NCBI RefSeq assembly: GCF_050320075.1
Contig: NZ_CP190018.1
Direction: 5' to 3' (one strand)
Origin: Escherichia coli
GTDB taxonomy: Bacteria > Pseudomonadota > Gammaproteobacteria > Enterobacterales > Enterobacteriaceae
DNA length: 64,000 nt
In this document: positions 18,286 through 57,788 of the stretch, one piece after another
How positions within the stretch are numbered: position 1 is the first letter of the stretch
Layout: each line of letters starts with the position of its first letter
Program-made: the position numbers and the translations under genes
The notes under the pieces: model-generated
What the model was told of the DNA's origin: nothing
What the model saw: only the letters and a program-made list of their open reading frames with translations
Database searches by the model: none

Positions 18286-18381
18286 ACGTTATCCCCTGCC
18301 TGACCGGGTGGGGGATAATTCACATCTATATATATCAGTAATTAATTAATATTTAGTATGAATTTAGGTAATGACTCCAAC

Positions 18382-18885
18382 TTACTGATAGTGTTTTATG
18401 TTCAGATAATGCCCGATGACTTTGTCATGCAGCTCCACCGATTTTGAGAACGACAGTGACTTCCGTCCCAGCCTTGCCAGATGTTGTCTCAGATTCAGGT
18501 TATGTCGCTCAATGCGCTGAGTGTAACGCTTGCTGATTACGTGCAGCTTTCCCTTCAGGCGGGATTCATACAGCGGCCAGCCATCCGTCATCCATACCAC
18601 GACCTCAAAGGCCGACAGCAGGCTCAGAAGACGCTCCAGTGTGGCCAGAGTGCGTTCACCGAAGACGTGCGCCACAACCGTCCTCCGTATCCTGTCATAC
18701 GCGTAAAACAGCCAGCGCTGACGTGATTTAGCACCGACGTAGCCCCACTGTTCGTCCATTTCAGCGCAGACAATCACATCACTGCCCGGCTGTATGCGCG
18801 AGGTTACCGACTGCGGCCTGAGTTTTTTAAGTGACGTAAAATCGTGTTGAGGCCAACGCCCATAATGCGGGCGGTTGCCCGGCAT
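18382..18885 (-). CDS. insB: IS1 InsB (transposase catalytic part, normally expressed as InsAB by -1 frameshift), 167 aa
   Basis: ORF track 18382..18885; overlaps insA 3' end in -1 frame. Confidence 0.9.
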
Positions 18886-19079
18886 CCAACACCATTCATG
18901 GCCATATCAATGATTTTCTGGTGTGTACCGGGTTGAGAAGCGGTGTAAGTGAACTGCAGTTGCCATGTTTTACGGCAGTGAGAGCAGAGATAGCGCTGAT
19001 GTCCGGCAGTACTTTTACCGTTACGCACCACGCCTTCAGTAGCTGAGCAGGAGGGACAACTGATGGAGATGGAAGCCAC
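18804..19079 (-). CDS. insA: IS1 InsA, 91 aa
   Basis: ORF track 18804..19079; [30 protein letters not shown]... zinc-finger/HTH InsA. Confidence 0.9.
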
Positions 19080-19146
19080 GGGAGCACCTCAAAAACACCA
19101 TCATACACTAAATCAGTAAGTTGGCACCATTACCCCGGGCTTTTAT

Positions 19147-23754: not shown

Positions 23755-24007
23755 TCGCTAAATAATACAGCAACCTTTAATAATCTTCTGATGAATAAAG
23801 ATTATCTCATATATTAATTTTATGAGATTTTTTTAGGATTATATCAAGGAGAAGAAACGAACTTATTAAGCTAGAATAGCCACGGGTGCTTGAGACTGTT
23901 TGTCTCAGGTATTCACCGAAAGGCAGACAGAGAAAAGCCCCACCTGACTATAAATCAAAGTGTACTGCACCCATTTTGTTGGACGATGAAATGGAATAGC
24001 CCCTAAT

Positions 24008-37387: not shown

Positions 37388-37806
<419 letters not shown>

Positions 37807-45774: not shown

Positions 45775-45840
45775 GAGAAAACCCCCGCACGTTGCAGGTA
45801 TGCACCTGACAACACCACGGGGGCCATTCTTGCATCCAAA
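45775..45840 (-). ncRNA. rdlD: Rdl-type antisense sRNA, copy 1 (approximate ends)
   Basis: Minus-strand promoter -35 TTGTAA (45876-45871), 17-bp spacer, -10 TATTCT (45853-45848); minus-strand hairpin over 45823-45782 followed by U-run; predicted length about 66 nt, antisense to the ldr leader. Confidence 0.45.
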
Positions 45841-45889
45841 CAATACAAGAATAGCCGCGAAACGTTGTCATTACAACTCAGGCGGCTAT

Positions 45890-45997
45890 ATGACGCTCGC
45901 AGAGCTGGGCATGGCCTTCTGGCATGATTTAGCGGCTCCGGTCATTGCTGGCATTCTTGCCAGCATGATCGTGAACTGGCTGAATAAGCGGAAGTAA
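45890..45997 (+). CDS. ldrD: Ldr type I toxin peptide, 35 aa, copy 1
   Basis: MTLAELGMAFWHDLAAPVIAGILASMIVNWLNKRK; last 36 codons of ORF-track 45755..45997. Confidence 0.8.
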   Translation: MTLAELGMAFWHDLAAPVIAGILASMIVNWLNKRK

Positions 45998-46258
45998 CGT
46001 GTCAGACGGGCGTCAGGCTGCCGTAATGGCAATTTGCGCCCGGACCAGGCCGCAGGGATAAAACTCTGCGGCCTTTTTCGTAAGAAAAATGCAACGGTTG
46101 CAAGCGGATAATATTCTGCTGAATGCACAGCACAGAGTGAAGAAGTGATGGATTTCGACGAACAAAAATGGCCGTAGAATCAGCGGCAAGCCGGAAGGGT
46201 TCCGGTGAGGCGCAATGTTGCGGGGGGCTTTATCCCTGGTGGCATTGGTTGCTGGAGA

Positions 46259-46324
46259 GAGAAAACCCCCGCACGTTGCAGGTATGCACCTGACAACACC
46301 ACGGGGGCCATTCTTGCATCTAGA
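46259..46324 (-). ncRNA. Rdl-type antisense sRNA, copy 2 (approximate ends)
   Basis: Same promoter and terminator architecture as copy 1, shifted by 484 bp. Confidence 0.45.
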
Positions 46325-46373
46325 CCATTCAAGAATAGCCGCGAAACGTTGTCATTACAACTCAGGCGGCTAT

Positions 46374-46481
46374 ATGACGCTCGCAGAGCTGGGCATGGCC
46401 TTCTGGCATGATTTAGCGGCTCCGGTCATTGCTGGCATTCTTGCCAGTCTGATCGTGAACTGGCTGAACAAGCGGAAGTAA
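46374..46481 (+). CDS. Ldr type I toxin peptide, 35 aa, copy 2
   Basis: MTLAELGMAFWHDLAAPVIAGILASLIVNWLNKRK; last 36 codons of ORF-track 46215..46481. Confidence 0.8.
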   Translation: MTLAELGMAFWHDLAAPVIAGILASLIVNWLNKRK

Positions 46482-46741
46482 CGTGTCAGACGGGCGTCAG
46501 GCTGCCGTAATGGCAATTTGCGCCCGGACCAGGCCGCAGGGATAAAACTCTGCGGCCTTTTTCGTAAGAAAAATGCAACGGTTGCAAGCGGATAATATTC
46601 TGCTGAATGCACAGCACAGAGTGAAGAAATGATGGATTTCGACGAACAAAAATGGCCGTAGAATCAGCGGCAAGCCGGAAAGGTTCCGGTGAGGCGCAAT
46701 GTTGCGGGGGCTTTATCCCTGGTGGCATTGGTTGCTGGAGA

Positions 46742-46807
46742 GAGAAAACCCCCGCACGTTGCAGGTATGCACCTGACAACACCACGGGGGCTAATCTTGA
46801 CTCTAGA
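46742..46807 (-). ncRNA. Rdl-type antisense sRNA, copy 3 (approximate ends)
   Basis: Same architecture shifted by a further 483 bp; body carries several substitutions relative to copy 2. Confidence 0.4.
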
Positions 46808-46856
46808 CCACTCAAGAATAGCCGCGAAACGTTGTCATTACAACACAGGCGGCTAT

Positions 46857-46964
46857 ATGACGCTCGCAGAACTGGGCATGGCCTTCTGGCATGATTTAGC
46901 GGCTCCGGTCATTGCTGGCATTCTTGCCAGTATGATCATGAACTGGCTGAACAAGCGGAAGTAA
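46857..46964 (+). CDS. Ldr type I toxin peptide, 35 aa, copy 3
   Basis: MTLAELGMAFWHDLAAPVIAGILASMIMNWLNKRK; last 36 codons of ORF-track 46689..46964. Confidence 0.8.
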   Translation: MTLAELGMAFWHDLAAPVIAGILASMIMNWLNKRK

Positions 46965-47050: not shown

Positions 47051-48730
47051 TTACTGCGGGTAAGGCACCCAGTCGCCGCCGTTCAGGCGAACGTACGGTT
47101 TATCCTGGTATTGAATAACTACTGCATTTGAGTTCTCTGAGACCGGTGCTGTTTGTGGCAACCCACTGGTGAGTTTTTTCCAGTCAACATTGTCTTCGGT
47201 GAAAATCTTGCCATCAAGAACGCGAACCACCAGATCGGAGATAGCCAGGAAGCTGCTCGGTTGGTCGATGACAATCGGTGCCCCCTGATGTGGTGCCTTC
47301 ATGCCGAAGAATTTCACCCCAACGGGGACGTCTGTGATAGACGGGCTAGGGATATCACGTAGGCCAGATACCTGCATTCTGTCGCCCTTCAGCGCGCCGC
47401 CGTGTTCCGGCACCACGACCACCATCACTTTACGACCCGATTTCTCCAGTTCAGTAAAGAAGGCGTCCAGTTCATCAAAGAATTTCTGCGCCCGCGCTTT
47501 GTAATCCGCTGTTTTGCTGACGCCCGGATAATGGTTGCCGTCATGCAGTGGAAGCGTGTTGTAGAACGTGGCACTACGGCTGTTTTTATCTTTTTCGGTA
47601 ACGTCCAGCCAGCGGTTAAGCACGGCGGTATCGTCATAAACCGGCGAACCATCAAAGCCCAGCAAAATAACCGGCAGATTTGTTTGATCCATCAATTCGG
47701 TCTGCATGCCGCCATTTTCGCGAACTTCTTTCAAAAAACCGCCGAACTGGCCGTTATGTCCCATCATCAGGTGCTGGGTAAAGCCCAGTTTCGACAGGTT
47801 ATCAAACAGATAGCAGTCGTTATTTGCCGGTTGATACAGATTAGTGTGCGAAGTCTGCCCGCAGCTGGCGCGCAGTAAACGGATCGCCGCCGGGCCACTG
47901 TAGGAGGTGGCGGAGTTAAAGTTCTTGAACTCAATATCGAAATGCGACCACAGCGGATGCGACATCAACCCGGCGGCTTCAATATCCGACCAGGAAAGCG
48001 AACAGATATTAATCACCAGTAGTTCAAATGGTTGAGCATCAGCGGGCAGCGAAGACGGGAAGGTCGATTTACGTTTCGCCTCCGCGTTATAGAAATTATT
48101 CAGCCAGGCGTTAAGGTTCGCCGTTGTTGGCGGTGCAGTTTGTGCGGGCATATCACCCACTACCGGTGCGCCACCCGTCGCCGCAACGGTTGCCGCTGCG
48201 TTGCCACCCGTCGTTGTTACAGTGGTCGTCGGTTGACCGGCTGGCCACAAGGAGAAACTTGGTCCCGCCAGGGTAAGTACGTTCAGCCATAGCAGAATGG
48301 CAACCACAAAAACGGTAATGCGAATCCATTGTGACAGGAATAACCAGGCCACTAATAAAACAAAAATGGCCCCAATCATCTGCCAGTTAATAAAGCGTGT
48401 GACAAGGTCGATTAAATAATCGGTACTGAACCCCGCCACCTGCGAACCCTGGCTCATTATGCTTTCCGGGCCAGGCAACCAGGTGTCATGCCAGAACAAA
48501 GCAAAGCCGATCGGCAGGGCAATCCAGTGGCGTAAGCGATGCAGGCTGTAGCGCGGAATGGGCATCAGCAGAAACGCGGCAAACACCAGATTGAGGAGCG
48601 GATGGAAGTTAAGATATCCCGCCCACAACAGGCCGAACTTAACCAGAAAATAGAAGTTCCAGCCGGAAAGGCCGCGCCAGTATTGCCAGAGGGAAGAAGG
48701 CATGGCGGTATTTTGCGTAAATTGAGTCAT
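47051..48730 (-). CDS. bcsG: cellulose phosphoethanolamine transferase, 559 aa
   Basis: ORF track 47051..48730. Confidence 0.9.
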
Positions 48731-48918
48731 TTTTTGGTTGCCCTGGCTTTTTCCGTGCGGCGTAACGTCCCGGCCGGTTTAACATAACGAGGTTTAGCAA
48801 AGAACAAACGTAAGGTGTCGCGAATGCGTCGCAAAGAGTGCCGCGCCAGATAGCCCAGCGGGAAAAATATCAGTGCGCAAACGACAATAATTTCAATGAT
48901 ATCGCTGATGGTCATCAT
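48727..48918 (-). CDS. bcsF: small membrane protein of the cellulose synthase complex, 63 aa
   Basis: ORF track 48727..48918; 4-bp overlaps with bcsE and bcsG. Confidence 0.8.
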
Positions 48919-50486
48919 GATGAGCGCTCCACAGCATCATCTAACAGTCGCATTGGTTCTGGTATTCGTCGCCAGTGGCGACCATCGTGCTCGGCATTAA
49001 TGACCGGTTTAGAATTTTGCGTTAAAGGCAGCGGCATGCCCCATTGTTCTGGGGCAAGCAGGCGCATCTGCACCAGCTCGGCACTGATTTGATCATCTTC
49101 AAACCAGACCATACGGTTTGAGAAAATGTCGCCAGTCGGCAATGGGAAAATATGATTCAACGCGGTATCCAGATCGTTAATCCGACAGAATGAGAGAAAC
49201 AGCACCAGCCGATTACCGCCAATAGTCATGATATCGCCGGTGCGGTTAGGGCGACACAGCGTCAGGGCTTGCTCAACGCGGATACCCGGTACCGGACGTA
49301 GGGCAACCAGAACGCCTTTACCGTGGGCAGGTAATAGAGGGTTATTCATCATGTTGTTGACGGCATTACAGAACACATCCCACTTCTGGAAACCACGCAG
49401 TTTGAGCGGCTGGGTCATTGACAGCAAGGTAGTGATACCTTCCGGCACATAGCGACTAAACTTCTGCCCTTGCACGCTTTCGATCATCGTCAGACAGCGG
49501 GAGAGTGGGGCATTCCATGGGATAACCATATTTGCACCGCAGGCCAATAACAAACGTTCATCGGTGGCGCGCAGGCTAGCGGTATTTTCCCGTACGAGGA
49601 TTTTCATCGCACTACCGCGCTGGCGACGCAGAGTATGAATGCTGCGGGCCAGTGGCTCGATTTGCGCATTTTGTTGTAAAGAAAAGACCACCGTCGCCGC
49701 CTGAGCGGTACGGGCTTCATTGAACAGGACTTCGTTATTGTTGAACAGTTGCCAGTGTTCTGATAGCGGCGGCGCACCTTCCAGTACAGCAACATTACTC
49801 AGAATGCGTTTTTCGTCGCTGCGTGGTTGGATCTCCGCCTCTTCGCTTTGAACTAATGTCCAGATACCATTTTGTTGCTGAACGCTAAGCTGCTGACGGG
49901 CGCTAACCCCTTTTTCGTTGCACCAGAAGGCAATATCCAGCAAATGTTGGTCGCCCTGAAAACGCAAACTGGCAAGACCAAAAAGTGAACGGTATTCCTC
50001 AAGCAACAATGAAAATTGTTTATCGTTATTATTTCCGGGATTAATTACCAAAAGCGAACAATGGTTTAACCTGCTCCATTTATTCATTTTATCCAACCAT
50101 GAGCGAAGCCGCTCGGCAGGAATGTTTTGCCATGCGTTATTTGCGCAAACAAGAATAAAAAGGTAATTATGGGGATCAATAGAACACTGCAAATCACGGG
50201 CCAAATAGTATAGACCTTTTTCATGATTTAGCATTGAAAATAATTTTATTTTTTCCGGTCCTTGAGAATCATCTAATTGAAAGATTTTCGCCGGATCGCT
50301 GTCCATGCTAATGACCGCGACGTGTGCGGTTTCAGCCTGGGATGCAATTGTTTGATTCGCCAGACTGATAGCATCTTCATGGCGATCGACGTTAAACCAC
50401 CAGACGCCGCCTGCTGGCATATGTCGCAGCTCATCCCATAATGATGAGATACCGATAGAGAATACAGGGTCCACAATGTCCCTCAT
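48915..50486 (-). CDS. bcsE: c-di-GMP-binding cellulose synthesis protein, 523 aa
   Basis: ORF track 48915..50486. Confidence 0.9.
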
Positions 50487-50757
50487 GTCATCATTTTGTC
50501 TGATTATCAGTTTACTAGCGAAAGCTAAGAAATAAACCTACCATTGAAATTAAAACTTATCAGATTTAGCATGTGAATCAATTTAGCAGGTCACAAGACG
50601 TGTGATTTTAGTCTTTTCGTTTTTAACTTTTTTTGTTGCGTAACGGAAAGTCAAAAAGTGAGCAAATTCCCGTCTCGCCGTAAACAATAAACCGGCGAAA
50701 TGCTCACGGTTAGAATTGTCTCATGAACGGTACGGTTATTTCATAGGGATCAAGCAA
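50487..50757. promoter_or_regulatory. divergent bcsEFG / bcsRQABZC promoter region
   Basis: 271-bp gap between divergent bcsE and bcsR starts; individual sites not resolved. Confidence 0.5.
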
Positions 50758-50946
50758 ATGAATAACAATGAACCAGATACTCTGCCTGATCCCGCGATAG
50801 GCTATATCTTCCAGAATGATATTTTGGCGTTAAAGCAGGCATTTTCACTGCCTGATATTGATTATGCCGATATTTCCCAACGCGAACAGTTGGCCGCGGC
50901 ATTAAAACGCTGGCCGTTGCTGGCAGAGTTTGCGCAACAAAAGTAG
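50758..50946 (+). CDS. bcsR: cellulose synthesis regulatory protein, 62 aa
   Basis: ORF track 50716..50946; start at ATG 50758 (MNNNEPDTLPDPAIGYIFQ...). Confidence 0.8.
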   Translation: MNNNEPDTLPDPAIGYIFQNDILALKQAFSLPDIDYADISQREQLAAALKRWPLLAEFAQQK

Positions 50947-50957
50947 GGGATTGGTGA

Positions 50958-51710
50958 ATGGCCGTACTGGGATTGCAGGGGGTGCGGGGAGGCGTGGGGA
51001 CAACAACCATCACCGCCGCATTAGCCTGGTCATTACAAATGTTGGGAGAAAATGTCCTGGTGGTCGATGCCTGCCCGGACAACTTGTTGCGCCTGTCATT
51101 TAACGTTGATTTTACCCACCGTCAGGGCTGGGCCAGAGCTATGCTGGATGACCAGGACTGGCGTGACGCCGGGTTGCGCTATACCTCGCAGCTCGATTTG
51201 CTGCCTTTTGGTCAGTTATCCATTGAAGAACAAGAAAATCCACAGCACTGGCAAACCCGGCTGAGCGATATTTGCTCCGGCTTACAGCAACTAAAAGCCA
51301 GCGGGCGTTACCAGTGGATTTTAATCGACTTACCGCGTGATTCCTCGCAGATAACCCACCAGCTGCTGAGTTTGTGCGATCACTCGCTGGCAATCGTCAA
51401 TGTGGATGCCAACTGCCATATCCGGCTGCATCAGCAGGCGCTGCCGGATGGCGCGCATATTTTGATTAATGACTTCCGTATCGGCAGTCAAGTTCAGGAC
51501 GATATTTACCAGCTTTGGTTGCAAAGCCAGCGCCGATTACTGCCGATGCTCATTCATCGTGATGAAGCGATGGCTGAATGCCTGGCGGCTAAGCAACCAG
51601 TCGGTGAATATCGCAGTGATGCGCTGGCGGCTGAAGAGATACTGACGCTGGCTAACTGGTGCCTGTTGAACTATTCCGGGCTGAAAACGCCAGTCGGGAG
51701 TAAATCATGA
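50958..51710 (+). CDS. bcsQ: ParA/MinD-like ATPase of the cellulose synthase complex, 250 aa, intact
   Basis: ORF track 50958..51710; deviant Walker A GVRGGVGTTT; codon 6 is TTG (50973-50975). Confidence 0.9.
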   Translation: MAVLGLQGVRGGVGTTTITAALAWSLQMLGENVLVVDACPDNLLRLSFNVDFTHRQGWARAMLDDQDWRDAGLRYTSQLDLLPFGQLSIEEQENPQHWQTRLSDICSGLQQLKASGRYQWILIDLPRDSSQITHQLLSLCDHSLAIVNVDANCHIRLHQQALPDGAHILINDFRIGSQVQDDIYQLWLQSQRRLLPMLIHRDEAMAECLAAKQPVGEYRSDALAAEEILTLANWCLLNYSGLKTPVGSKS

Positions 51711-54325
51711 GTATCCTGACCCGGTGGTTGCTTATCCCGCCGGTCAACGCGCGGCTTATCGGGCGTTATCGCGATTATCGTCGTCACGGCGCGTCGGCTT
51801 TCAGCGCGACGCTCGGCTGTTTTTGGTTGATCCTGGCCTGGATTTTTATTCCGCTGGAGCACCCGCGCTGGCAGCGTATTCGCGCAGAACATAAAAACCT
51901 GTATCCGCATATCAACGCCTCGCGTCCGCGTCCGCTGGACCCGGTCCGTTATCTCATTCAAACATGCTGGTTACTGATCGGTGCATCGCGCAAAGAAACG
52001 CCGAAACCGCGCAGGCGGGCATTTTCAGGTCTGCAGAATATTCGTGGACGTTACCATCAATGGATGAACGAGCTGCCTGAGCGCGTTAGCCATAAAACAC
52101 AGCATCTTGATGAGAAAAAAGAGCTCGGCCATTTGAGTGCCGGGGCGCGGCGGTTGATCCTCGGTATCATCGTCACCTTCTCGCTGATTCTGGCGTTAAT
52201 CTGCGTTACTCAGCCGTTTAACCCGCTGGCGCAGTTTATCTTCCTGATGCTGCTGTGGGGGGTAGCGCTGATCGTACGGCGGATGCCGGGGCGCTTCTCG
52301 GCGCTAATGTTGATTGTGCTGTCGCTGACCGTTTCTTGCCGTTATATCTGGTGGCGCTACACCTCTACGCTGAACTGGGACGATCCGGTCAGCCTGGTGT
52401 GCGGGCTTATTCTGCTGTTCGCCGAAACGTACGCGTGGATTGTGCTGGTGCTCGGCTACTTCCAGGTAGTATGGCCGCTGAATCGTCAGCCGGTGCCATT
52501 GCCGAAAGATATGTCGTTGTGGCCGTCGGTGGATATCTTTGTCCCGACTTACAACGAAGATCTCAACGTGGTGAAAAATACCATTTACGCCTCGCTGGGT
52601 ATCGACTGGCCGAAAGACAAGCTGAACATCTGGATCCTTGATGACGGCGGCAGGGAAGAGTTTCGCCAGTTTGCGCAAAACGTGGGGGTGAAATATATCG
52701 CCCGTACCACTCATGAACATGCGAAAGCGGGCAACATCAACAATGCGCTGAAATATGCCAAAGGCGAGTTCGTGTCGATTTTCGACTGCGACCACGTACC
52801 AACGCGATCGTTCCTGCAAATGACCATGGGCTGGTTCCTGAAAGAAAAACAACTGGCGATGATGCAGACGCCGCACCACTTCTTCTCACCGGACCCGTTT
52901 GAACGCAACCTGGGGCGTTTCCGTAAAACACCTAACGAAGGCACGCTGTTCTATGGTCTGGTGCAGGATGGCAACGATATGTGGGACGCCACTTTCTTCT
53001 GCGGTTCCTGTGCGGTGATTCGCCGTAAGCCGCTGGATGAAATTGGCGGCATTGCTGTCGAAACTGTGACTGAAGATGCGCATACCTCTTTGCGCCTGCA
53101 CCGTCGTGGCTACACCTCTGCATATATGCGTATTCCGCAGGCGGCGGGGCTGGCGACCGAAAGTCTGTCGGCGCATATCGGTCAGCGTATTCGCTGGGCG
53201 CGCGGGATGGTGCAAATCTTTCGTCTCGATAACCCGCTCACCGGTAAAGGGCTGAAGTTTGCTCAGCGGCTATGTTACGTCAACGCCATGTTCCACTTCT
53301 TGTCGGGCATTCCACGACTGATCTTCCTGACTGCGCCGCTGGCGTTCCTGCTGCTGCATGCCTACATCATCTATGCGCCAGCGTTGATGATTGCCCTGTT
53401 CGTGCTGCCGCATATGATCCATGCCAGCCTGACCAACTCCAAGATCCAGGGCAAATATCGCCACTCTTTCTGGAGTGAAATCTACGAAACGGTGCTGGCG
53501 TGGTATATCGCACCACCGACGCTGGTGGCGCTGATTAACCCGCACAAAGGCAAATTTAACGTCACCGCCAAAGGTGGACTGGTGGAAGAAGAGTACGTCG
53601 ACTGGGTGATCTCGCGGCCCTACATCTTCCTTGTTCTGCTCAACCTGGTGGGCGTTGCGGTAGGCATCTGGCGCTACTTCTATGGCCCGCCAACCGAGAT
53701 GCTCACCGTGGTCGTCAGTATGGTGTGGGTATTCTACAACCTGATTGTTCTTGGCGGCGCAGTTGCGGTATCGGTAGAAAGCAAACAGGTACGCCGATCG
53801 CACCGCGTGGAGATGACGATGCCCGCGGCAATTGCCCGCGAAGATGGTCACCTCTTCTCGTGTACCGTTCAGGATTTCTCCGACGGTGGTTTGGGGATCA
53901 AGATCAACGGTCAGGCGCAGATTCTGGAAGGGCAGAAAGTGAATCTGTTGCTTAAACGCGGTCAGCAGGAATACGTCTTCCCGACCCAGGTGGCGCGCGT
54001 GATGGGTAATGAAGTTGGGTTGAAATTAATGCCGCTCACCACCCAGCAACATATCGATTTTGTGCAGTGTACGTTTGCCCGTGCGGATACATGGGCGCTC
54101 TGGCAGGACAGCTACCCGGAAGATAAGCCGCTGGAAAGTCTGCTGGATATTCTGAAGCTCGGCTTCCGTGGCTACCGCCATCTGGCGGAGTTTGCGCCTT
54201 CTTCGGTGAAGGGCATATTCCGTGTGCTGACTTCTCTGGTTTCCTGGGTTGTATCGTTTATTCCGCGCCGCCCGGAGCGGAGCGAAACGGCACAACCATC
54301 GGATCAGGCTTTGGCTCAACAATGA
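51707..54325 (+). CDS. bcsA: cellulose synthase catalytic subunit (GT2 plus PilZ domain), 872 aa
   Basis: ORF track 51707..54325; 4-bp overlap with bcsQ. Confidence 0.95.
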   Translation: MSILTRWLLIPPVNARLIGRYRDYRRHGASAFSATLGCFWLILAWIFIPLEHPRWQRIRAEHKNLYPHINASRPRPLDPVRYLIQTCWLLIGASRKETPKPRRRAFSGLQNIRGRYHQWMNELPERVSHKTQHLDEKKELGHLSAGARRLILGIIVTFSLILALICVTQPFNPLAQFIFLMLLWGVALIVRRMPGRFSALMLIVLSLTVSCRYIWWRYTSTLNWDDPVSLVCGLILLFAETYAWIVLVLGYFQVVWPLNRQPVPLPKDMSLWPSVDIFVPTYNEDLNVVKNTIYASLGIDWPKDKLNIWILDDGGREEFRQFAQNVGVKYIARTTHEHAKAGNINNALKYAKGEFVSIFDCDHVPTRSFLQMTMGWFLKEKQLAMMQTPHHFFSPDPFERNLGRFRKTPNEGTLFYGLVQDGNDMWDATFFCGSCAVIRRKPLDEIGGIAVETVTEDAHTSLRLHRRGYTSAYMRIPQAAGLATESLSAHIGQRIRWARGMVQIFRLDNPLTGKGLKFAQRLCYVNAMFHFLSGIPRLIFLTAPLAFLLLHAYIIYAPALMIALFVLPHMIHASLTNSKIQGKYRHSFWSEIYETVLAWYIAPPTLVALINPHKGKFNVTAKGGLVEEEYVDWVISRPYIFLVLLNLVGVAVGIWRYFYGPPTEMLTVVVSMVWVFYNLIVLGGAVAVSVESKQVRRSHRVEMTMPAAIAREDGHLFSCTVQDFSDGGLGIKINGQAQILEGQKVNLLLKRGQQEYVFPTQVARVMGNEVGLKLMPLTTQQHIDFVQCTFARADTWALWQDSYPEDKPLESLLDILKLGFRGYRHLAEFAPSSVKGIFRVLTSLVSWVVSFIPRRPERSETAQPSDQALAQQ

Positions 54326-54335
54326 TGATAACGCG

Positions 54336-56675
54336 ATGAAAAGAAAACTATTCTGGATTTGTGCAGTGGCTATGGGGATGAGTGCGTTCCCCTCTTTCAT
54401 GACGCAGGCGACGCCAGCAACGCAACCACTGATCAATGCTGAGCCAGCTGTAGCCGCCCAGACGGAACAAAATCCGCAGGTGGGGCAAGTGATGCCAGGC
54501 GTGCAGGGCGCTGATGCCCCCATCGTGGCGCAGAACGGTCCTTCGCGTGATGTGAAGCTGACCTTTGCGCAAATTGCGCCCCCGCCGGGCAGCATGGTGC
54601 TACGTGGCATTAACCCGAACGGCAGCATTGAGTTTGGTATGCGCAGCGATGAAGTGGTGACGAAGGCGATGCTCAACCTCGAATACACGCCATCGCCATC
54701 GTTACTGCCTGTCCAGTCGCAGTTAAAGGTTTATCTCAATGATGAACTGATGGGCGTGCTGCCAGTGACCAAAGAACAGTTGGGTAAAAAAACGCTGGCA
54801 CAAATGCCCATTAACCCACTGTTTATTACCGACTTCAACCGTGTGCGGCTGGAGTTTGTCGGTCATTATCAGGACGTGTGCGAAAACCCGGCCAGCACCA
54901 CGCTTTGGCTGGATGTTGGGCGGAGCAGTGGACTGGATTTGACCTATCAGACCCTGAATGTGAAGAATGACCTGTCACACTTCCCGGTACCATTCTTTGA
55001 CCCGCGTGATAACCGTACTAACACCTTGCCGATGGTCTTTGCGGGTGCGCCGGATGTTGGGCTGCAACAAGCATCTGCCATTGTCGCCTCGTGGTTTGGT
55101 TCGCGTTCTGGCTGGCGTGGGCAGAACTTCCCGGTGCTCTATAACCAATTGCCGGATCGCAATGCCATCGTTTTTGCCACCAATGACAAACGCCCGGACT
55201 TCCTGCGCGATCATCCGGCGGTAAAAGCCCCGGTGATTGAGATGATCAACCATCCGCAGAATCCTTATGTCAAACTGCTGGTGGTGTTTGGTCGTGACGA
55301 CAAAGACCTGTTGCAGGCAGCGAAAGGTATCGCTCAGGGTAACATTCTGTTCCGTGGTGAAAGCGTGGTAGTGAATGAAGTGAAACCGCTGCTACCGCGT
55401 AAGCCGTACGATGCGCCGAACTGGGTGCGTACCGATCGTCCGGTTACCTTTGGTGAACTGAAAACCTATGAAGAACAGTTACAATCCAGCGGTCTTGAGC
55501 CAGCAGCGATTAACGTTTCGCTAAACCTGCCGCCGGATCTCTACCTGATGCGCAGTACCGGCATTGATATGGATATTAATTATCGCTACACCATGCCGCC
55601 GGTGAAAGACAGTTCGCGGATGGATATCAGCCTGAATAACCAGTTCCTGCAATCCTTCAACCTGAGCAGCAAACAGGAGGCGAATCGCCTGCTGCTGCGG
55701 ATTCCGGTATTACAAGGTTTGCTGGATGGCAAAACGGATGTCTCTATTCCGGCGCTGAAACTGGGCGCGACCAACCAGCTGCGCTTTGACTTTGAGTATA
55801 TGAACCCGATGCCGGGCGGTTCGGTGGATAACTGCATTACCTTCCAGCCGGTGCAGAATCATGTGGTGATTGGTGATGATTCCACCATCGACTTCTCGAA
55901 GTATTACCACTTCATCCCGATGCCGGATCTACGCGCCTTTGCTAACGCGGGCTTCCCGTTCAGCCGGATGGCGGATCTGTCACAAACCATCACCGTGATG
56001 CCGAAAACGCCTAACGAAGCACAGATGGAAACCTTGCTGAATACTGTTGGTTTTATCGGCGCACAGACGGGCTTCCCGGCGATTAATCTGACGGTGACCG
56101 ATGATGGCAGCACCATTCAGGGCAAAGATGCCGACATCATGATCATCGGTGGTATCCCGGACAAATTAAAAGACGACAAGCAGATCGACCTGCTGGTGCA
56201 GGCGACCGAAAGCTGGGTGAAAACGCCGATGCGCCAGACCCCGTTCCCCGGCATTGTGCCGGACGAGAGCGATCGCGCGGCAGAAACCCAGTCAACGCTG
56301 ACCTCTTCCGGTGCGATGGCGGCGGTGATTGGCTTCCAGTCGCCGTATAACGACCAGCGTAGCGTGATTGCGCTGCTGGCAGATAGCCCACGCGGTTATG
56401 AAATGCTTAACGATGCGGTGAACGATAGCGGCAAACGCGCCACCATGTTCGGTTCGGTCGCGGTGATCCGCGAGTCCGGTATCAATAGCCTGCGTGTTGG
56501 CGACGTCTATTACGTTGGCCATCTGCCGTGGTTCGAACGCTTATGGTATGCCCTGGCAAACCATCCGATTCTGCTGGCGGTGCTGGCGGCAATCAGCGTC
56601 GTGCTGCTGGCCTGGGTACTGTGGCGTTTGCTGCGTATTATCAGCCGTCGTCGTCTTAACCCGGATAACGAGTAA
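54336..56675 (+). CDS. bcsB: cellulose synthase periplasmic subunit, 779 aa
   Basis: ORF track 54249..56675; start at ATG 54336 (MKRKLFWICAVAMGMSAF...), 11 bp after bcsA stop. Confidence 0.9.
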   Translation: MKRKLFWICAVAMGMSAFPSFMTQATPATQPLINAEPAVAAQTEQNPQVGQVMPGVQGADAPIVAQNGPSRDVKLTFAQIAPPPGSMVLRGINPNGSIEFGMRSDEVVTKAMLNLEYTPSPSLLPVQSQLKVYLNDELMGVLPVTKEQLGKKTLAQMPINPLFITDFNRVRLEFVGHYQDVCENPASTTLWLDVGRSSGLDLTYQTLNVKNDLSHFPVPFFDPRDNRTNTLPMVFAGAPDVGLQQASAIVASWFGSRSGWRGQNFPVLYNQLPDRNAIVFATNDKRPDFLRDHPAVKAPVIEMINHPQNPYVKLLVVFGRDDKDLLQAAKGIAQGNILFRGESVVVNEVKPLLPRKPYDAPNWVRTDRPVTFGELKTYEEQLQSSGLEPAAINVSLNLPPDLYLMRSTGIDMDINYRYTMPPVKDSSRMDISLNNQFLQSFNLSSKQEANRLLLRIPVLQGLLDGKTDVSIPALKLGATNQLRFDFEYMNPMPGGSVDNCITFQPVQNHVVIGDDSTIDFSKYYHFIPMPDLRAFANAGFPFSRMADLSQTITVMPKTPNEAQMETLLNTVGFIGAQTGFPAINLTVTDDGSTIQGKDADIMIIGGIPDKLKDDKQIDLLVQATESWVKTPMRQTPFPGIVPDESDRAAETQSTLTSSGAMAAVIGFQSPYNDQRSVIALLADSPRGYEMLNDAVNDSGKRATMFGSVAVIRESGINSLRVGDVYYVGHLPWFERLWYALANHPILLAVLAAISVVLLAWVLWRLLRIISRRRLNPDNE

Positions 56676-56681
56676 TTGAAG

Positions 56682-57788
56682 ATGAATGTGTTGCGTAGTG
56701 GACTCGTGACGATGCTGCTGCTGGCTGCCTTTAGTGTTCAGGCAGCCTGTACCTGGCCTGCCTGGGAACAGTTTAAAAAGGATTACATCAGTCAGGAAGG
56801 GCGCGTCATCGACCCCAGCGACGCGCGCAAAATCACCACTTCCGAAGGGCAAAGTTACGGCATGTTCTTTGCCCTGGCGGCTAACGACCGTGCAGCTTTC
56901 GATAATATTCTCGACTGGACGCAGAACAATCTCGCTCAGGGTTCTTTAAAAGAACGTTTGCCCGCATGGCTGTGGGGCAAGAAAGAGAACAGTAAGTGGG
57001 AAGTGCTGGACAGCAATTCGGCCTCCGATGGTGATGTCTGGATGGCCTGGTCGTTGCTGGAGGCGGGGCGTTTGTGGAAAGAGCAGCGTTATACCGACAT
57101 CGGCAGCGCGTTGTTAAAACGTATTGCGCGGGAGGAAGTGGTGACGGTGCCTGGGCTGGGCTCCATGTTGTTGCCGGGCAAAGTGGGATTTGCAGAGGAT
57201 AACAGCTGGCGTTTTAACCCCAGCTACCTGCCGCCGACGCTGGCGCAGTATTTCACCCGCTTTGGCGCGCCGTGGACTACGCTGCGCGAAACCAATCAAC
57301 GTTTATTGCTGGAAACCGCCCCGAAAGGCTTTTCGCCAGACTGGGTGCGCTATGAGAAAGACAAAGGCTGGCAGCTAAAAGCCGAAAAAACATTGATCAG
57401 CAGCTACGACGCGATCCGCGTTTACATGTGGGTAGGCATGATGCCTGACAGCGATCCGCAAAAAGCGCGGATGCTCAACCGGTTTAAACCGATGGCGACA
57501 TTCACCGAGAAAAACGGCTATCCGCCAGAAAAAGTGGATGTGGCTACGGGGAAAGCGCAGGGTAAAGGACCGGTCGGTTTTTCTGCCGCCATGCTGCCCT
57601 TTTTACAAAACCGCGATGCGCAGGCCGTTCAGCGCCAGCGCGTGGCCGATAACTTTCCCGGCAGCGATGCCTATTACAACTATGTGCTGACCCTGTTTGG
57701 ACAAGGCTGGGATCAACACCGTTTCCGCTTCTCGACAAAAGGTGAGTTATTACCTGACTGGGGCCAGGAATGCGCAAATTCACACTAA
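56682..57788 (+). CDS. bcsZ: periplasmic endo-1,4-beta-glucanase (GH8), 368 aa
   Basis: ORF track 56676..57788; start at ATG 56682 ([21 protein letters not shown]). Confidence 0.9.

Follow-up and report, generated by a model that had tools for sequence, protein, structure and literature searches.

An intact bcsQ and a full-length cellulose gene cluster in a natural Escherichia coli sequence

The 64-kb stretch of E. coli DNA analysed here (the window) carries what is very probably, at about 0.9, an ordinary wild-type phosphoethanolamine-cellulose locus of a natural isolate, with bcsRQABZC, the divergent bcsEFG and the adjoining pdeK, and the capacity to make cellulose is predicted from it. The codon at which bcsQ is interrupted in K-12 laboratory strains is a leucine codon in the window. 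This observation is confirmed; it concerns a defined codon in a well-annotated gene, and chance is not at issue.

The bcsQ frame is open at codon 6

In the window, bcsQ starts with ATG GCC GTA CTG GGA TTG CAG (50958-50978) and runs without a single internal stop to a TGA at 51708-51710, encoding a protein that begins MAVLGLQGVRGGVGTTT. A sequence-only reading of the window had claimed that codon 6 is TTG and that the 250-aa frame is open, and both are seen in the sequence. The same reading gave TAG as the K-12 state of this codon, which is what the MG1655 sequence and the literature give (PMC5944007, PMC7397504); the MG1655 gene, b3534, is annotated as a pseudogene in NC_000913.3. Alignment of the bcsQ start with K-12, a check that the reading had proposed, leaves one base different between the window and MG1655 from -60 to +90 nt, the T>A at codon 6. 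The 17T>A marker of the K-12 bcsQ-null genotype is thus absent, the window having TTG in place of TAG.

Table 1 Features of the window. Amino acid (aa) changes are relative to K-12.
Feature	Position	Strand	Description
IS1	18367-19134		768 bp
sok-like antisense RNA match	23884-24037
IS150 transposase ORFs	24008-25377
hokA	25479-25631
cspA thermoregulator 5'UTR (Rfam) plus gene	25764-26191	-	493 bits
tRNA-Pro	37388-37464
RtT RNA repeats, tandem	37499-37632, 37665-37800
rdlD RNA matches	45776-45841, 46260-46325, 46743-46808	-
ldr ORFs	45890-45997, 46374-46481, 46857-46964	+
bcsG	47051-48730	-	559 aa; phosphoethanolamine transferase modifying cellulose; 3 aa changes
bcsF	48727-48918	-	63 aa; 0 aa changes; nucleotide-identical to K-12; TIGR03493
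bcsE	48915-50486	-	523 aa; c-di-GMP-binding GIL-domain protein; 3 aa changes
bcsE/bcsR divergent intergenic (promoter) region	50487..50757	.	271 bp
A-run 5' of bcsR ATG	50755-50757		1 nt shorter than in K-12 and Nissle
bcsR (yhjR)	50758-50946	+	62 aa; 1 aa change; intact
bcsQ	50958-51710	+	250 aa; ParA/MinD-type ATPase; 3 aa changes plus the K-12 codon-6 stop
bcsQ codon 6	50973..50975	+	TTG (Leu) here; TAG in K-12
bcsA	51707-54325	+	872 aa; cellulose synthase catalytic subunit with PilZ domain; 1 aa change (M41L)
bcsB	54336-56675	+	779 aa; periplasmic subunit; 8 aa changes
bcsZ	56682-57788	+	368 aa; periplasmic GH8 endoglucanase; 2 aa changes
bcsC	57770-61243	+	1157 aa; TPR and outer-membrane channel protein; 11 aa changes
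pdeK (hmsP)	61325-63313	+	662 aa; c-di-GMP phosphodiesterase adjoining operon; 4 aa changes

Integrity of the bcs genes and pdeK

We compared the nine bcs genes and pdeK with K-12, using the MG1655 annotation (NC_000913.3) as the template for all ten. The genes are colinear with their K-12 counterparts and identical to them in length and in start and stop codons, and the encoded proteins differ by 0-11 residues each (Table 1). A search of the nine bcs genes and pdeK for internal stops, frameshifts, truncated starts and missing motifs found none. The sequence-only reading had named a stop or frameshift in bcsA, bcsB, bcsC, bcsE or bcsG as the finding that would speak against it, and comparison with K-12 reveals no such lesion in these genes.

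Each protein also aligns with its NCBIfam model over the full length and scores well above the curated cutoff, which, together with the K-12 lengths, bears out the claim of full-length frames for bcsRQABZC and bcsEFG. BcsQ matches the equivalog model NF007460 over residues 1-249 of 250 (538.6 bits, cutoff 399), BcsA matches NF008558 over residues 1-872 of 872 (1793 bits, cutoff 992) and BcsC matches NF008520 over residues 1-1157 of 1157 (2193 bits, cutoff 858). The match of BcsB to NF008325 likewise covers the whole length (1387 bits, cutoff 922), and scores of 75.8 bits for BcsR (NF040717, cutoff 46) and 781.5 bits for PdeK (NF008807, cutoff 733) were obtained.

The BcsQ sequence is identical at 247 of 250 positions to the crystallised E. 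coli protein (6YBU, 6YAR), with three residues differing, agreement at K249 and the same N-terminal GVRGGVGTTT P-loop region. In bcsA, 36 of the changes relative to K-12 are synonymous and one is non-synonymous. We take the family-defining motifs of BcsA to be the GT2 D,D,D,QxxRW series, FFCGS and TED, followed by RxxxR and DxSxxG in the C-terminal PilZ domain. The window protein has DCD360, FFCGS430, TED455 and QRIRW493 in the GT2 core, and RRSHR696 and DFSDGG723 at the PilZ c-di-GMP site. BcsE has the RxGD motif of the GIL domain as RTGD415, BcsZ has E55, and BcsG has C243, S278, H396, E442 and H443, its metal-site and nucleophile residues. The motifs that were checked in BcsA, BcsE, BcsG and BcsZ are essential for function. 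The single change in BcsR, V23L, is shared with Nissle and O157.

Gene junctions and the promoter region

The layout of the junctions is exactly that of K-12. The sequence-only reading had described the genes as joined by the expected short overlaps, which is true of four junctions out of the seven: bcsQ/bcsA (4 nt, ATGA), bcsZ/bcsC (19 nt), bcsE/bcsF (4 nt) and bcsF/bcsG (4 nt). The remaining three are short gaps, of 11 nt from bcsR to bcsQ, 10 nt from bcsA to bcsB and 6 nt from bcsB to bcsZ.

Relative to K-12, the divergent bcsE/bcsR intergenic region differs by three substitutions and by an A-run that is 1 nt shorter, and no insertion element was found in its 271 bp. This run lies just 5' of the bcsR start codon and reads agcaaATG in the window and agcaaaATG in K-12 and Nissle, which alters the spacing ahead of the first gene of the operon.

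Allele frequencies and selection

Of 5247 complete matching E. coli genomes, 3551 contain an exact copy of the 61-mer that has codon 6 of the window at its centre; the corresponding K-12 61-mer with TAG has exact matches in 349. Among the matches listed for the TAG form, 60 of 60 are K-12 laboratory derivatives, including MG1655, DH5alpha, C600, J53, DH1, NCM3722 and HMS174; the allele was not seen outside laboratory K-12 in these 60 of the 349 carriers. Because of these counts, and because the listed carriers are all K-12 derivatives, we regard TTG as the ancestral, majority state, while TAG appears to be derived, limited to the K-12 laboratory lineage and a mark of it. The mutation has been dated to the common ancestor of K-12 (PMC5944007).

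The window and MG1655 differ by approximately 280 substitutions over the nine bcs genes, and divergence from K-12 at synonymous sites is about 8%. Comparison of the nine concatenated genes with K-12 gives a dN/dS of 0.039, and comparison with Nissle 1917 one of 0.050; these low values point strongly to purifying selection on the bcs genes. Public collections contain each of the nine Bcs proteins, in exactly this sequence, on 1000 contigs or more. Most of the amino acid differences are K-12/phylogroup-A states, also found in NCTC86, at which the window has the residue of Nissle, of O157 or of both; examples are BcsZ F63 (shared with both) and BcsB T165, N184 and R224. Lineage-specific substitutions are BcsQ G65D and A129S, BcsA M41L, BcsB V63I and I756V, BcsE D350G and S491N, and several in BcsC.

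Lineage of the window and loss of bcs genes elsewhere

The 20-kb bcs region is 100% identical in the natural isolates 746, SCU-109, CE2050, YZLc1-3, ECamp083, MS14384 and Ec-U3. One of them is of ST963, which we take to lie within the ST38 complex of phylogroup D. This isolate, MS14384, comes from urosepsis (PMC10024524). For ST38 and ST963, neither the published literature nor the PMC10881479 supplements yielded usable data on phenotype or bcs integrity.

Not every E. coli keeps the cluster intact. Loss-of-function mutations in bcs were reported in 55.3% of ST95 genomes; of 76 common STs, 74 include at least some strains with such mutations, and in 14 of these STs more than 80% of strains have them (PMC10881479). 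In the genomes that we compared, O157:H7 Xuzhou21 has a stop at bcsQ codon 66 and a bcsC frameshift, and NCTC86 has stops at bcsQ codon 191 and bcsG codon 24 together with a bcsA frameshift. The lesions of these two strains are independent and illustrate recurrent natural loss of the cellulose pathway.

Other features of the window

Between yhjV and bcsG (45776-46964) the window has three ldr/rdl units, type I toxin-antitoxin modules arranged in tandem. At this site K-12, O157 Xuzhou21 and NCTC86 have one unit each, and Nissle has two.

The IS1 element has terminal inverted repeats matching at 23 of 30 positions and is not flanked by a 9-bp target duplication. In strain 746 its place is taken by a 940-bp segment with the complete yiaB and yiaA genes. 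The window is nearly identical to both 746 and Ec-U3, and each of them differs from it at the IS1/yiaAB junction; Ec-U3 has the same right IS1 junction and retains 204 bp more on the left side. The arrangement looks like an IS1-associated adjacent deletion.

An IS150 copy is situated between a sok-like antisense RNA match and hokA (23884-25631), and so splits the hok/sok-type locus. Upstream of dppA, tRNA-Pro is followed by two RtT RNA repeats (37388-37800). The strong Rfam match to the cspA thermoregulator falls on a CDS that RefSeq names cspE in the near-identical strain 746, which is probably an inconsistency of naming.

Predicted cellulose capacity and alternative explanations

BcsQ, a ParA/MinD-type ATPase, forms an assembly with BcsR and BcsE. 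The intact bcsQ of the window would supply the ATPase required for assembly of the Bcs complex. Since the stop codon of bcsQ and the start codon of bcsA overlap in the sequence ATGA, we infer that the two genes are translationally coupled; an intact bcsQ would then keep bcsA expression coupled, and this would be the step upset by the K-12 nonsense codon. Two effects of the K-12 stop, the loss of BcsQ and polarity on the downstream genes, may be at work singly or together (PMC5944007). Changing TAG to TTG at codon 6 made W3110 cellulose-proficient, giving strain AR3110, and cellulose synthesis needs c-di-GMP from DgcC under CsgD control, with PdeK as the local antagonist (PMC7397504). In the proposed scheme, CsgD-dependent DgcC would supply c-di-GMP to the PilZ domain of BcsA and to BcsE, and cellulose would be made. 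The antagonist pdeK is in the window and intact; csgD, dgcC and rpoS lie outside its 64 kb. At the level of genotype the interpretation given by the sequence-only reading is supported, and cellulose production given c-di-GMP input is a reasonable prediction.

The most serious alternative is that the frames are open and the locus is nevertheless phenotypically silent under standard assay conditions, owing to missense changes in Bcs proteins or to faulty regulation that originates beyond the window (in csgD, dgcC or rpoS, or through expression restricted by temperature). No calcofluor signal was seen in BL21 or H10407, although the bcs genes of both strains are full length (PMC5944007), so open frames are necessary but not sufficient. 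Cellulose loss is also often selected in pathogenic clones (PMC10881479), and the window carries lineage-specific substitutions. Against a silent locus stand the dN/dS of about 0.04-0.05, the intact state of all the known functional motifs, the very wide distribution of the exact alleles and the fact that most differences from K-12 are common to Nissle or O157. We therefore consider this explanation unlikely, while giving it more weight than the others. It is considerably less probable still that the lineage-specific BcsQ G65D/A129S and BcsE D350G/S491N changes and the 1-nt shorter bcsR spacer could shift the amount or regulation of cellulose relative to model strains; were they to matter, the locus would be a natural variant in the regulation of the BcsERQ module rather than plain wild type.

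A K-12 derivative with a repaired bcsQ would share TTG at codon 6 with AR3110. The sequence-only reading had held that this is not MG1655 DNA, and the roughly 280 bcs substitutions, the three ldr copies in place of one and the IS1 replacing yiaAB agree with it. Natural isolates match the region at 100% identity and K-12 does not, and we reject an AR3110-like origin, which has next to no probability, on this divergence and the flanking differences. A sequencing or assembly error that hides a real stop codon is as improbable, since the same 61-mer is present in 3551 complete genomes and the same 20 kb in at least seven independent assemblies; these many identical assemblies exclude it. A wild-type locus of a natural isolate thus remains our preferred reading of the window.

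This result shows that the window comes from a natural E. coli other than K-12, still genetically equipped to make phosphoethanolamine cellulose. Because bcs function has been lost repeatedly, and in some clones this loss is linked to virulence (PMC10881479), an intact cluster is informative for annotation at the strain level, although it is still the default state. Neither the bcsQ lesion of K-12 nor the wild-type state goes beyond textbook knowledge. An intact bcsQ is the usual condition of the species; its presence is no discovery and advances no open question.

Comparison with known bcs systems

The window has the composition of a type II (E. coli-type) cluster. It contains a BcsA with GT2 core and C-terminal PilZ site, full-length BcsB, BcsZ and BcsC encoded 3' of bcsA, bcsR and an intact bcsQ 5' of bcsA, and a divergent bcsEFG with the BcsE RxGD motif and the key residues of BcsG.

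Comparison with related loci indicates where the window stands. The naturally disrupted lineages (ST95 clades, O157:H7/ST11 and NCTC86; PMC10881479) have the same locus but carry stops and frameshifts, none of which is present in the window. The cellulose-negative bcsQ(TAG6) genotype of K-12 (MG1655, W3110), described by Serra et al. 2013 as cited in PMC5944007 and PMC7397504, shares the gene layout, whereas its defining TAG lesion is absent. The window closely resembles the E. coli/Salmonella-type bcs cluster of E. coli 1094, AR3110 and UTI89, whose product is phosphoethanolamine cellulose. The same nine genes are found in the same order and orientation, with the same lengths and junctions, and pdeK lies beside the operon as described in PMC7397504. 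The window differs from this cluster only by alleles, and in structure and organisation it holds nothing new relative to it.
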